Below, one piece after another: positions 8,275-56,487 of a DNA stretch of 64,000 nt. Both the position numbers and the translations under genes were made by a program. Positions within the stretch are counted from its first letter, which is position 1; the number at the start of each line of letters is the position of its first letter. A model generated the notes under the pieces. The model was given only the letters and a program-made list of their open reading frames with translations. It did not search any database and was not told the DNA's origin. The DNA is from Haliotis rubra. Taxonomy: Eukaryota. The stretch covers positions 88,041 to 152,040 of the forward strand of contig NW_025765324.1 of the NCBI RefSeq assembly GCF_003918875.1. The letters are read 5' to 3'.

Positions 8275-8510
8275 GGTAAGAAATGTGGTTTGATTAGTGG
8301 AGTTATCTCCCTATGCCAGTAAGGAATGGTGAAGCCACGAGGCATGTGTTTTGATGCCTGTCTTTGAACCGTATATTCTGATACCCAAGAGATGAATGGA
8401 GCCTATCGAACCACATACATTCTTAACTGTATTCCTTATTTTCATGAAAACACAGGCCTCGTGGCTTCACCATTCCTTACCAGCCAAGGGAGATGACTCC
8501 ACTATTCTCT
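8275..8510. mobile_element. Foldback element abutting TEP1 first coding exon
   Basis: Arms ggagttatctccctatgccagtaaggaatggtgaagccacgaggc (8300-8345) and gcctcgtggcttcaccattccttaccagccaagggagatgactcc (8457-8501) are reverse complements about 110 bp apart. An extra direct half-copy ggagttatctcccttggtcggtaag sits at 8257. The right arm contains the ATG at 8493. Confidence 0.5.
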
Positions 8511-9233
8511 TCTACAGTCACCCTCACATCTTTCTCACCTGCAGTTAGTTGTCCACAACATTCCTATTACAGCATGTGTTGTAATCATAGATTGTTTGTT
8601 CAAGGTTTAAAAGGAGGACTTGGCGGGTCAAGTCTACTCTCGACATCCAAAACTGCTGATGCAGGTCGTAAGCGGAAAGGAAATGATTCCTCTGATGTTG
8701 ATAAAAAGAAGACAAAAGACACATCGTTTGCTACCCAGAGTTCTCTTCTCAGCACAGAGCTGACCCAGAAATTAACACTATCGTCCAGCTTGACTGGCAG
8801 CAGTTTACTGTCCGGCAGTAGCCTACTGTCTGGTGGACTGTTAACAAGTTCTTTAACAAAAACACTGTTTGTTAAATCTACAAGAACTAAAGATGACCAT
8901 AATGAAAAATCGAGCGAAAGCTCGTTGGAAAAAAACCCAAAGAAAGTGAAATCTACAAGGGCTGATGGACCTTCAAAGAGACAGTCAATTGAGGTCAAGG
9001 ACAAAGGAAGGAAGGTGTCCAAGTTGTCCAAGGCCGCCAAACTGCCCAAAGAGAAGTCCAAGGAACCAGGATTCAACTACAAGGCGTACGAGACCAGCTA
9101 CCCAGATTACAACTTTGCTGGGATGTATGCTGGGGAGAGTTTTGAAGTGCCGAGCTTCATGCCGCCAGACAAGGATGTTAGAGTCAGCAAACACCTTGTG
9201 GCAGCGCCACTCTGTGATGTGAACGGCTTGAAG
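8493..9233 (+). CDS. TEP1: TEP1-like exon 1 (first coding exon seen; low-complexity N-terminal region)
   Basis: Open frame from ATG 8493 to donor aag|gtgagt (GT at 9234). S/T/K-rich segment ending ...KEPGFNYKAYETSYPDYNFAGMYAGESFEVPSFMPPDKDVRVSKHLVAAPLCDVNGLK. True 5' boundary uncertain: an acceptor-like ttctcttctacag ends at 8517 and upstream exons may exist. Confidence 0.5.
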
Positions 9234-9795
9234 GTGAGTGATTGGTTAGCATCATTAGATTAGCCCATTGATGTAGAAAGTATGACATATAGCTGTTATA
9301 ACATTGATACAGGGTTAGGAATTTATCAGGCATACAGGTTTTAGTAGTCCAACTAGGTTATATTTGAACAATTGCTTTCAACAATTGTATTTTTATGCAA
9401 TGATACATTGTACTTGTCCTGAAGGACATAATTATATTGAGAATGGGATGCACCAAGAATTTCGCTGCCTATGACTAAAGCTACTGTTCCAGAGCCTACA
9501 GCCTTTAAAATTTCTTTCCGTCAAGAACAGTTAATGATCAATTACAGTTCAAGTTGTGTGATGAACATTATCATCAGCCTGCTTATGATAACTCAATTGT
9601 ACGACACCCGACTGTTTTGAATATTTTTTTAGTCCATGTTCAAAAAGGCATGCTAAGTAATGAAACACAAATGACATCTAACCTTGCCGAAGCTGTTTAT
9701 ATTTATCATGTATAACCTGCTCTCTTTCATGTATGTCAGTATGTTTGATGGTAATTATAATAACAATAGTTATCTTTCTTACATATTCTTTCCAG

Positions 9796-9930
9796 CATGC
9801 ATTTATCAATGCTGTAAGTTCATCCCTTATCTGCGCACCGAACTTCAAGGATTCCAAGGACAAGGCCAGAATTGACCTCATTGCCATGTCAGAGAAGGTC
9901 ACGACCTATGACCCAGAGTTTCTTCTGAAG
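9796..9930 (+). CDS. TEP1: TEP1-like exon 2 (TROVE)
   Basis: Acceptor ttctttccag|cat, donor ctgaag|gtaagc. Phase 0-0. Peptide HAFINAVSSSLICAPNFKDSKDKARIDLIAMSEKVTTYDPEFLLK. Confidence 0.7.
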
Positions 9931-10087
9931 GTAAGCTTAAGGTGTTAAAAGTTGGACAAATTTAACATCTGTTAACTAAAAACAACTATGATCACAATGA
10001 TGCACCCACAATGTTGGCCTTCTCAGTTCAGCCAATTATTAGTAAATTTAACTTATTTATAAATGCTTTTTGTTAATTTTTGGTCAG

Positions 10088-10249
10088 GTTGCCTTACACA
10101 CAAGAAAAGGTTTGAACATCCGAACTACAGCCAACTTTTTGCTGGCACTGGCTGCAAATGTAAAGTTGTGTCGCCCATACATGAGAAAATATTTCTCTGC
10201 TGCCATCAACCTGCCCTCCGACTGGATTGAAGTGGCAGAAATCTACCAG
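10088..10249 (+). CDS. TEP1: TEP1-like exon 3 (TROVE)
   Basis: Acceptor ttttggtcag|gtt, donor taccag|gtgagg. Peptide VALHTRKGLNIRTTANFLLALAANVKLCRPYMRKYFSAAINLPSDWIEVAEIYQ. Confidence 0.75.
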
Positions 10250-10596
10250 GTGAGGATGATTTTCTGTTCATCTGTCTGTTATGAAAGGTACAAGATTACA
10301 GGTTCAAGAGGTTTTTGCTTTCATCTGTGGTTAACTTGATGTAGGAAAACTGATATCAATGTATAACAGTTAAATCCTAAACTGTTGAAACATGTCCAAA
10401 TTTATGAGAAGAGACTATGGTATATAGTGTATTATATATATCACGCTTCCGTACAAAATATACAATGACCTCAGGAACAATTATTACAGGCAGCAATCTG
10501 TTCTCTTTTTATTTTCAAATGGTAATTTGTCATGTTTGATAATTTTTGACTGCAGAAGTTATTTTATATATCTAACTGTTCTGTCATTAACTTCAG

Positions 10597-10693
10597 GCAT
10601 TCCATGATGATGGCCTGACATTCGGGGCACTCCCTGCAGCCTTGAGACGAGTTATGGTGGCAAAGTTTCCAGATTTTGACAAATACCAGCTTG
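10597..10693 (+). CDS. TEP1: TEP1-like exon 4 (TROVE)
   Basis: Acceptor aacttcag|gca, donor cagcttg|gtaggt. Peptide AFHDDGLTFGALPAALRRVMVAKFPDFDKYQL. Ends with 1 carried nt. Confidence 0.7.
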
Positions 10694-55024: not shown

Positions 55025-55195
55025 GGGGCGGTGGGGGTAGCCGAGTGGTTAAAGCGTTCGCTCGTCACGCAGAAGACCTGGGTTTGATTCCCCACATGGG
55101 TACTATGTGTGAAGACCATATTTGGTGTCCCCTGCAGTGATATTGCTGGAATATTGCTAAAAGCAGTCTCAAACTAAACTCACTCACCCAATATC
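55025..55195 (+). mobile_element. SINE-A copy
   Basis: ggggcggtgggggtagccgagtggttaaagcgttcgctcgtcacgcagaagacctgggtttgattcccc...gcagtctcaaactaaactcactcaccc. Confidence 0.8.
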
Positions 55196-55294
55196 TTACC
55201 TTAAATTCAGAATTGTATTCACTAGCACCAGATGGTCTTTTGTTCAGTAGGTTTTGTCATCGCCATGGCAACTTACTCTTCTCTTTGTTCACAG

Positions 55295-55501
55295 GTTAAG
55301 TACAGTAGTCCAGTGACCAAACTGATGATGGTGCTTGTGGATAGCTCCGAGCTAGACAAACATGTTCCTCCTCACAAACGTACCAAGACATGGGTGTTAG
55401 ATGTCATGCAAAGGGGGACAACTGTGTACTGCGTTGACTCCAAGGGGCAGATAACTGTGGCAAACAGAAACCAAGCACCTGACACATGGAAAACAGTAAA
55501 G
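55295..55501 (+). CDS. TEP1: TEP1-like exon 51
   Basis: Acceptor ctttgttcacag|gtt, donor gtaaag|gtattg. Peptide VKYSSPVTKLMMVLVDSSELDKHVPPHKRTKTWVLDVMQRGTTVYCVDSKGQITVANRNQAPDTWKTVK. Confidence 0.65.
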
Positions 55502-55990
55502 GTATTGAAAAATGTCATTATTTTCTTTTAAAATAGGGTTTGGGGGACATTTGTCCGAGGGTCACTTATTATAAGACGGATGTGGGGAGAGATGGGAGAG
55601 TGTGAATGTGCAATGCCAAGTTAAGGCTCTCTCAGTGGCGAGGGTAAACTGAAATACCAGATTTTCTCCATGTAGGGACTAGCTGTTTTGGATTTTACAG
55701 GGGGCTTATTTATTTATTTTCAATTTGTTCTAGATTATACTGGGGTTCCGGTTCAGGGTCAGTCTAATTTTAAGATAATATGCAGGACATACTGGGAGTC
55801 CTGAAAAACAAATACATTAAAAGGTGTTTGAAGCAGTATTTTCCAAATTCATGGATGTTAAATAGACATTTGTTGACTAGCATTGGTGTGCCAGGCCCAT
55901 CCCAATGCTTGTCAGTGTCGCTGAGGTTGTTGCTGTCTAAATGTGTAAAGCCCATTGACATTGTTATTGATTATTGGATGTTTGTTCTAG

Positions 55991-56092
55991 ATTCATGCGG
56001 AGGCCATCACCAGCATCATGGCGGTGGCTGGATGTATCTTCACAGCGTCCGCTGACCACACAGTGAAAGTGTGGACGGAAGATCTGACTCAG
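55991..56092 (+). CDS. TEP1: TEP1-like exon 52 (WD40)
   Basis: Acceptor tttgttctag|att, donor gactcag|gtaagt. Peptide IHAEAITSIMAVAGCIFTASADHTVKVWTEDLTQ. Confidence 0.7.
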
Positions 56093-56352
56093 GTAAGTTC
56101 ACCAATCTGTTCATGGCTGTCGTGTATAGATCCCAATTTAAGGGGTTTTTAATTGCCATATTAATAACCTGAGGGTGTTTAATTATATATTTTTAAAATG
56201 ACAGTTTAAGATTTTCTTATTCAACAAATGGGCAATGCCAGAAGGGTGATCAGCTAAAGACCTGGGTTCTACAAGGGTTGAAGGCAATGGGTTGCTGAGG
56301 GAACTTCTTACAGAAATGTCTTGTGAAGCAAAGCATTGTTTTCTCTCCTCAG

Positions 56353-56487
56353 ATTGGTCAGTTCTTCTGTCCAGCACCTGTGACCAGCATGACACTTGCC
56401 GGAACGGTCAGCAGGTGCCCCGAGTGTGTCCCCCTGATGTGTGGTGACCAACTGGGCAACGTCCATCTCCTCACATGGCGGCAGTGA
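56353..56487 (+). CDS. TEP1: TEP1-like terminal coding exon
   Basis: Acceptor ctctcctcag|att. Peptide IGQFFCPAPVTSMTLAGTVSRCPECVPLMCGDQLGNVHLLTWRQ, then TGA at about 56485-56487. Confidence 0.7.
   Translation: MGQFFCPAPVTSMTLAGTVSRCPECVPLMCGDQLGNVHLLTWRQ

Follow-up and report, generated by a model that had tools for sequence, protein, structure and literature searches.

A 54-exon gene for a predicted TEP1 orthologue, with three single-nucleotide frame breaks, in a 64-kb stretch of Haliotis rubra DNA

A stretch of 64,000 nucleotides from Haliotis rubra (NCBI RefSeq assembly GCF_003918875.1, contig NW_025765324.1, positions 88,041 to 152,040 of the forward strand; the whole stretch is hereafter called the window) carries on its + strand, from 8493 to 56487, what is well supported by sequence comparison as one protein-coding gene, an orthologue of the vault-associated TROVE-STAND protein TEP1 (telomerase protein component 1). 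The best-supported reading of its product, by homology, is a protein organized as vertebrate TEP1, in which a putative RNA-binding TROVE/vWA head is joined to a predicted NAD hydrolase (NADase) as effector, a predicted STAND-type ATPase as switch, and a WD40 region as scaffold. This TEP1 copy is ordinary and full-length, and its sole oddity is three 1-nt breaks of the reading frame. We consider it probable that the whole represents a single TEP1 orthologue in which the breaks are errors of the assembly consensus and the real gene is intact. TEP1 orthologues of this architecture are already known and annotated in many invertebrates; the gene in the window is a curation item, not a discovery.

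Reference proteins and gene model

The window has about 40% G+C, short stop-free stretches, numerous interspersed repeats, and several tandem arrays, and is eukaryotic in character; stop-free segments of its + strand already show recognizable protein pieces and many WD40-like repeats. A first protein query, in which the DUF4062 and NACHT pieces were joined to 395 aa, matched short entries named 'telomerase protein component 1-like' (Branchiostoma, Saccoglossus, Araneus) and many bacterial DUF4062-NACHT proteins; no match exceeded 688 aa, and none was a full-length TEP1. Full-length references came from an exhaustive search of protein representatives. The best full-length relative is XP_021378535.1 (2701 aa), a TEP1-like protein of the scallop Mizuhopecten yessoensis, followed by TEP1-like proteins of Mya arenaria, Solemya velum, Elysia marginata, Branchiostoma, Lytechinus, Anneissia, and Priapulus, and, more distantly, by vertebrate TEP1 (lamprey, lungfish, opossum, and others); the closest relatives are thus molluscs. 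In tblastn, the scallop protein aligned with the window in strict collinearity, from its residue 295 at 9799 to its residue 2701 at 56484, with all matches on the + strand and none on the minus strand. Overall, tblastn and BLASTP against annotated TEP1 proteins gave matches collinear over the whole gene with E = 0, far beyond chance.

The gene model was built with a purpose-written protein-to-genome spliced aligner, which handles codon matches, gaps, frameshifts, introns of phase 0, 1, or 2, GT or GC donors, and AG acceptors, together with simple splice-site scores, and which was run with seven full-length TEP1 references. Most exon borders were chosen identically by six or seven of the seven references, and poorly conserved spots were settled by hand from the reading frame, the splice sites, and the phase. 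The resulting model comprises 54 exons with 8000 nt of exon sequence and 53 introns of 135-6617 nt, all GT-AG, with compatible phases at every exon junction. After three frame corrections, the coding sequence is one open reading frame of 2665 codons without internal stops, which yields a product of 2665 aa. The first-pass annotation, made from the DNA letters, had placed the gene at 8493-56487 on the + strand, and these limits coincide exactly with the ATG and the stop codon of the model. Its multi-exon structure also stands; its count of about 53 exons has to be raised to 54, and its exon numbers run one behind from some point after exon 11 (Walker A lies in exon 21, not 20, and the WD40 repeats in exons 32-54). 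What the sequence and this model show directly is how the gene is built, the order of its domains, its orthology, and that the catalytic and nucleotide-binding residues are conserved.

Several segments offered during alignment were rejected. Segment 8233-8318, forced by the aligner in a poorly conserved stretch, contains a stop and matches in only 9 of 31 residues, and segments 53431-53477, 55073-55124, and 55167-55234 give only 3-6 identities each; these last three were replaced by 53354-53477 and 55295-55501, whose acceptors are good, whose phases match, and whose sequence is WD40-like. Segment 50500-50580 was chosen by only three distant references, and the 18-nt units within a 48-bp array before exon 41 were likewise not accepted as exons. 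At the border of exons 10 and 11, the GC donor 19079 with acceptor 19915 was rejected in favor of GT 19086 and AG 19919, which leaves the frame unchanged with a difference of one codon. Splitting exon 5, which would have required a frameshift at 12262, was also discarded, the single exon 12221-12423 being open in one frame.

The presumed start, ATG 8493 (context GGGAGATGA), is the first in-frame ATG downstream of a stop, and the donor of exon 1 at 9233 was the choice of six of the seven references. An inverted repeat occupies 8239-8517, with arms 8292-8356/8443-8507 (88%) and 8239-8285/8471-8517 (89%). Downstream of the stop codon, the nearest AATAAA/ATTAAA lies at 57171.

Domain organization of the predicted protein

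The Pfam families on the assembled protein follow the order TROVE, DUF5920, DUF4062, NACHT/AAA_22, HTH_NWD1, APAF1_C, and WD40 with TEP1-specific propellers (Table 1). The TEP1 identity and domain order claimed in the first-pass annotation are borne out by Pfam, by BLASTP, by two TEP1-specific propeller families above their cut-offs, and by a match to the human TEP1 chain 11gz_A (E = 4e-60). In the Pfam search proposed there, TROVE was found with great strength and DUF4062 above its cut-off, so that a lack of either was not seen, and in the proposed BLASTP comparison, vertebrate TEP1 of lamprey, lungfish, and opossum aligned over nearly the whole length. The motifs quoted there (CDIGSEM, IILSGG, GKPGSGKT, and VVVMDGLD) are all present.

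The TROVE domain (PF05731) gives E = 6e-104 and 349 bits (cut-off 23) over profile positions 20-442 of 442, and its exons, compared one by one with the scallop protein, are 60-80% identical. It had been assigned to exons 2-9; the domain itself is confirmed, and its extent reaches exon 11. Within the domain, exon 5 (12221-12423) and exon 10 (18920-19086) encode low-complexity inserts rich in Lys and in Arg-Gly (RGRGRG), and such inserts, of different lengths, also occur in the scallop protein. RG repeats are typical of RNA-binding proteins. The region that follows belongs to DUF5920 (PF19334, the TEP1 vWA-like region), with 36.9 bits (cut-off 27) over residues 727-900; CDIGSEM lies at residue 705 in exon 11 and IILSGG at residue 809 in exon 14. 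The vWA-like region predicted earlier is present, but the earlier reading of CDIGSEM as DxSxS-like does not hold: the peptide occupies the position of the metal ion-dependent adhesion site (MIDAS) in the vWA fold, is not a DxSxS/MIDAS motif, and lies at a position that varies freely across TEP1 orthologues.

DUF4062 (PF13271) scores 53.1 bits (cut-off 24.7) over residues 937-1030, with its quoted motif at residue 937 in exon 17. The adjoining P-loop NTPase is matched by AAA_22 with 30.9 bits (cut-off 27) over the NACHT stretch; Walker A, GKPGSGKT, lies at residue 1201 in exon 21 and Walker B, VVVMDGLD, at residue 1292 in exon 23, and both are conserved in all orthologues. HTH_NWD1 (aa 1424-1534, 27.5 bits) and APAF1_C (aa 1543-1679, 43.8 bits) are both above cut-off, and a PDB sequence search gave weak APAF1 matches at residues 1570-1694. 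In the C-terminal region, a repeat profile derived from the protein itself finds 19 clear WD40 blades and about two degenerate ones, in agreement with the earlier estimate of about 20 repeats; 19-21 blades are consistent with three 7-bladed propellers. Pfam WD40 detects 12 significant stretches, and the TEP1-specific families Beta-prop_TEP1_2nd (255.8 bits, cut-off 89) and Beta-prop_TEP1_C (124.7 bits, cut-off 32, residues 2589-2663) are both recognized. TEP1_N, the family of vertebrate N-terminal repeats, was not among the 13 Pfam families found at E <= 0.01 in residues 1-1700. These repeats do not define TEP1 outside vertebrates.

NADase residues and proposed mechanism

The PDB sequence search matched residues 933-1147 of the predicted protein, over 215 residues, to 11gz_A, a 220-residue chain of human 'Telomerase protein component 1'. 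Two preprints of 2026 show DUF4062 of human TEP1 to be a TIR-like NADase, active alone and in reconstituted vaults, in which E1008 is catalytic, R908, R954, and R976 lie in the active site, and C959 is required (10.64898/2026.05.01.722283; 10.64898/2026.09.21.753143). Activity was also shown for the corresponding domains (TeTIR) of TEP1 from zebrafish, sponge, and Dictyostelium (10.64898/2026.09.21.753143). Equivalents of human R908, R954, C959, R976, and E1008, found by counting positions along the printed 11gz_A alignment, are all conserved in the predicted protein, in STFRD, LNR, LCL, RYG, and TELEM, respectively, the full set holding only after correction of the frameshift at about 24042.

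The Haliotis protein may be expected to bind RNA, to act as a NADase, and to associate with vaults, by analogy with work on the proteins of human, mouse, zebrafish, sponge, and Dictyostelium. Its TROVE/vWA-like head would bind small structured RNAs (vault RNA in vertebrates), and its DUF4062 domain would act as a TIR-like hydrolase that converts NAD(P)+ to ADP-ribose(-phosphate) and nicotinamide via the conserved Glu of TELEM. The NACHT ATPase, the helical modules, and the approximately 21 WD40 blades would form a STAND-type switch and scaffold, which presumably governs how the enzyme is assembled or placed (in vertebrates, within the vault particle).

Comparison with known proteins

The scallop protein has the same domain order and C-terminal end, near-equal length, and the same motifs at the three frameshift sites; BLASTP identity is 55% over residues 444-2665 of the model (2268 columns) and 42% over 96-379. 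Homology with it begins at about residue 96, the first ~95 residues being neither conserved nor alignable; the RG- and Lys-rich inserts differ in length, and only the copy in the window needs three corrections. Identity with sea urchin TEP1 is 43% (residues 176-2516), with lungfish TEP1 (XP_043914013.1) 35%, with lamprey TEP1 (XP_075925797.1) 33% (275-2661 of the model against 284-2673), and with opossum TEP1 (XP_056665943.1) 30% (459-2663 against 431-2591). Vertebrate TEP1 of the human type (Q99973) is collinear with the predicted protein from TROVE to the last WD40 blade, the NADase residues and Walker motifs are conserved, and both match the TEP1-specific propeller families; vertebrate TEP1 differs in its N-terminal TEP1_N repeats and in the region past the vWA strand.

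Like the predicted protein, Ro60 (TROVE2) has a TROVE module with a vWA-like fold after it. It is a protein of about 540 aa that ends after the vWA domain, without DUF4062, NACHT, or WD40, and its MIDAS is functional, in contrast to the degenerate MIDAS position of the predicted protein. NWD1, NWD2, and the bacterial DUF4062-NACHT defense proteins (Swarozyc, Evangelion, and NIR) share the DUF4062 and NACHT core, with up to 38% identity over the whole 395-aa core in the bacterial proteins, but lack the TROVE/vWA head, and many of the bacterial members are without WD40 or carry TPR instead. The layout of these NWD and bacterial proteins, with the effector upstream of the STAND module, is the same as in TEP1; isolated NWD2 domains have low NADase activity, whereas full-length NWD1 and NWD2 have none (10.64898/2026.05.01.722283; 10.64898/2026.09.21.753143).

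Frame breaks and alternative readings

With each of the seven references, the frame has to be changed at the same three places, in exons 13, 18, and 29 (near 20825, 24042, and 37545). In exon 13, dropping one C (CTCCGA) restores ...LVEVL-RDRIQ and leads into donor 20841 in phase 0; RDRIQ occurs unchanged in the scallop protein, and other orthologues conserve it. In exon 18, one added base restores GMLG-x-RYGWVPDKY at a site one codon before the equivalent of the human active-site R976, and two tblastn frames overlap at this site for every homologue. In exon 29 (CGCGCGCCTTC), either the CC or TT run lacks one base or there is one CG unit too many; the correction restores WTGHTRA(x)FSELPYHL, in which ELPYHL is conserved from scallop to opossum. 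The residues restored just past each shift are among the best conserved of the family, and no alternative splice site that bypasses the frameshifts keeps the conserved RDRIQ, RYGW, or ELPYHL. The continuous reading described in the first-pass annotation thus exists, but only with all three corrections made.

On the sequence, the three 1-nt indels are probably assembly consensus errors, and this origin is favored because all three lie in short homopolymer or CG runs, nonsense codons are absent, splice sites are unbroken, and no rate acceleration is seen downstream. Each of the three breaks changes, by one base, the length of a run of 2-3 identical bases or of a CG repeat, 8 kb of exons contain no nonsense codon, and all 106 splice dinucleotides are intact. 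In a relative-rate test with four outgroups and four segments, the predicted protein was as similar to the outgroups as the scallop and Mya proteins are, including downstream of each break; no segment shows extra divergence, and therefore there is no sign of prolonged relaxed constraint. The frameshifts may instead be real, with the copy or haplotype being a recently inactivated TEP1 pseudogene or null allele, which we regard as unlikely. Three independent breaks in conserved exons are demanded by every reference, and slippage in short runs is also a natural mode of mutation; neutral decay, however, should also yield stops or splice defects, and an indel-only error process (e.g., long-read consensus) therefore appears to suit the pattern better. 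As a rough estimate, if substitutions outnumber indels by about 8-10:1, three neutral indels would imply about two other disabling hits, and the probability of finding none under that ratio would be about 0.1-0.15. If the frameshifts were real, at most an 815-aa fragment with TROVE and a partial vWA region would be made, and the mRNA would probably be lost to nonsense-mediated decay; the copy would then be a natural loss-of-function allele, a knock-out of the vault NADase that leaves at most this Ro60-like TROVE fragment.

Some observations weigh against an intact gene affected by consensus errors, or against details of the model. As assembled, the 8000-nt exon sequence is not a multiple of three, meets its first stop at codon 815, and does not encode the full protein. 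Three breaks per 8 kb are many if the assembly was polished, errors of the classic kind fall in long homopolymers and not in runs of 2-3 bases, and the relative-rate test is blind to very recent inactivation. The Pfam NACHT family scores 26.3 bits over residues 1196-1331, 0.4 bit below its cut-off of 26.7; the Walker motifs and the adjacent STAND modules speak for a NACHT-type NTPase. The presumed ATG 8493 and the first eight codons lie inside the right arm (8443-8517) of the inverted repeat, in a part of the gene that is not conserved. The span could also be divided between two adjacent genes, one Ro60-like with TROVE and vWA (exons 1-16) and one NWD1-like with DUF4062, NACHT, and WD40 (exons 17-54). 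TROVE-only proteins (Ro60) and DUF4062-NACHT-WD40 proteins (NWD1/NWD2) do exist as separate families (10.64898/2026.09.21.753143), and predictors do split TEP1, as the Branchiostoma and Saccoglossus entries of 272-1340 aa, which are fragments, demonstrate. Two genes are nevertheless very unlikely, because single BLASTP alignments cross the junction, both with sea urchin (176-2516) and with lamprey (275-2661), and the phases match, with no stop where exon 16 meets exon 17. Moreover, homology to the scallop protein includes the linker exon 16, exon 17 has no in-frame start with homology, and the TROVE part is closest to TEP1 proteins, with no Ro60 structure found in the PDB sequence search at E <= 0.001.

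Implications for annotation

As a single TEP1 orthologue, the gene is mainly of value for annotation, and the 54-exon table can be used for curating it. The curation value claimed earlier is fair but modest, since annotation already includes TEP1-like genes of scallop, Mya, Solemya, Elysia, amphioxus, sea urchin, crinoid, and priapulid. With its 54 exons, transposon-bearing 6.6-kb intron, four junction-derived arrays, and three frame breaks, this gene would probably be broken up or cut short by automatic prediction; the repeats, transposon, and junction-abutting arrays in its introns would make it hard to predict, as the first-pass annotation had suggested. It adds one more invertebrate TEP1 in which every NADase and P-loop residue is conserved, in agreement with the 2026 reports of the DUF4062 domain of TEP1 as a NADase conserved from amoebae to humans. 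Knowledge of TEP1, vaults, and telomerase is unchanged by it.

Table 1. Coordinates of the predicted TEP1 gene, its domains, the frame breaks, and one interspersed repeat family in the window.
Feature	Position	Strand	Remarks
Whole TEP1 coding span	8493..56487	+	Spliced alignment with seven references, model translation
Exons 1-10	8493-9233, 9796-9930, 10088-10249, 10597-10693, 12221-12423, 13307-13443, 14359-14516, 15024-15133, 17899-17989, 18920-19086	+	
Exons 11-20	19919-20095, 20257-20415, 20766-20841, 21612-21757, 22258-22329, 22521-22685, 23356-23532, 23979-24220, 24496-24609, 31227-31347	+	
Exons 21-30	31777-31959, 32252-32427, 32924-33071, 33529-33705, 35203-35295, 35756-35888, 36420-36597, 37190-37299, 37487-37574, 38183-38297	+	
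Exons 31-40	38896-39004, 39641-39800, 40159-40254, 40801-40925, 41444-41593, 42645-42750, 43222-43341, 43545-43643, 44432-44585, 44721-44827	+	
Exons 41-50	46353-46510, 47145-47244, 47914-48039, 48842-48949, 50252-50402, 50796-50941, 51448-51659, 51820-51889, 52306-52433, 52768-52923	+	
Exons 51-54	53354-53477, 55295-55501, 55991-56092, 56353-56487	+	
Exon 1	8493..9233	+	aa 1-247; Ser/Leu/Lys-rich, low-complexity, poorly conserved N-terminal region
TROVE (aa 247-699)	9796..20014	+	Exons 2-11; Pfam PF05731
vWA-like region (aa ~700-900)	20015..22590	+	End of exon 11 to exon 16; strands IIFCDIGSEM and VDNLIILSGG
DUF4062/predicted TIR-like NADase domain (aa 933-1147)	23357..31338	+	Exons 17-20, split by intron 19 (6.6 kb)
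Predicted NACHT-type P-loop NTPase (aa 1196-1331)	31912..33564	+	Exons 21-24; Walker A and Walker B
STAND helical modules	35798..39719	+	Exons 26-32; NWD1-type winged helix and APAF1-type helical domain
WD40 region (aa ~1700-2665)	39780..56484	+	End of exon 32 to exon 54
Stop codon TGA	56485..56487	+	C-terminus ...GDQLGNVHLLTWRQ, same end residue as the scallop protein
Frameshift 1, exon 13	20823..20829	+	One extra base in CTCCCGA; called at 20820-20829 by 7/7 references
Frameshift 2, exon 18	24037..24049	+	Base missing in GGCACC^GATATGG (GGCACCGATATGG); called at 24040-24041 by 7/7 references
Frameshift 3, exon 29	37537..37553	+	Within CACACACGCGCGCCTTC; called at 37534-37544 by 7/7 references
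Copies of the ~160-bp family (examples)	3339-3500, 444-610, 4058-4237, 14728-14906, 20952-21123, 21974-22148, 33266-33439, 46697-46826, 55023-55194, 59898-60070		

Repeats, arrays, and flanking sequences

Four tandem arrays or duplications in the gene (13444-13993, 32636-32942, 45467-46368, and 49003-50248) abut splice junctions and are built of copies of these junctions. A 24-bp array directly after the donor of exon 6 repeats GTAAGTATTGATAG, and a degenerate triplication of about 90 bp repeats the acceptor and the first ~20 nt of exon 23. Before exon 41, a 48-bp x18 array repeats TGTTCAG followed by ATGTTGGACGGAACC (the acceptor and the start of exon 41), each unit resembling a mini-exon with an in-frame AG-18 nt-GT, and a 64-bp x17 array is made of the acceptor and start of exon 45. 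Such units could act as decoy splice sites or optional micro-exons.

Intron 19 contains a 5.46-kb element (25555-31016) with 224-bp terminal inverted repeats (25555-25776 and 30797-31016, 96% identical), a G+C content of 52-54% against the background of 40%, and, at 26937-27498, tandem repeats of 135/280 bp in its interior. Its open reading frames are without a Pfam match, and it therefore resembles a non-autonomous DNA transposon; no match was found for the ten longest open reading frames of the flanks, the antisense strand, and this intronic element. An interspersed family of about 160 bp has at least 11 copies in the window, in both orientations and with 80-87% identity. The head of this family scores as tRNA in Rfam (37 bits, 3341-3411); ARAGORN finds no tRNA in the window, and the single Rfam tRNA match belongs to this family, which is probably a tRNA-derived short interspersed element. 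A second interspersed family of about 215 bp has about eight copies (e.g., 10907-11122, 12626-12872, and 43951-44164). Intron 10 harbors at 19633-19763 a (CCCTA)x26 microsatellite, which on the other strand is (TAGGG)n, a telomere-repeat-like pentamer; its presence in a TEP1 intron is probably a coincidence. In the flanks (1-8400 and 56500-64000), a non-exhaustive search recognized no protein-coding gene, the longest open reading frames being without a Pfam match, and the 3' flank carries a 29-bp x12.7 tandem array at 61777-62143.

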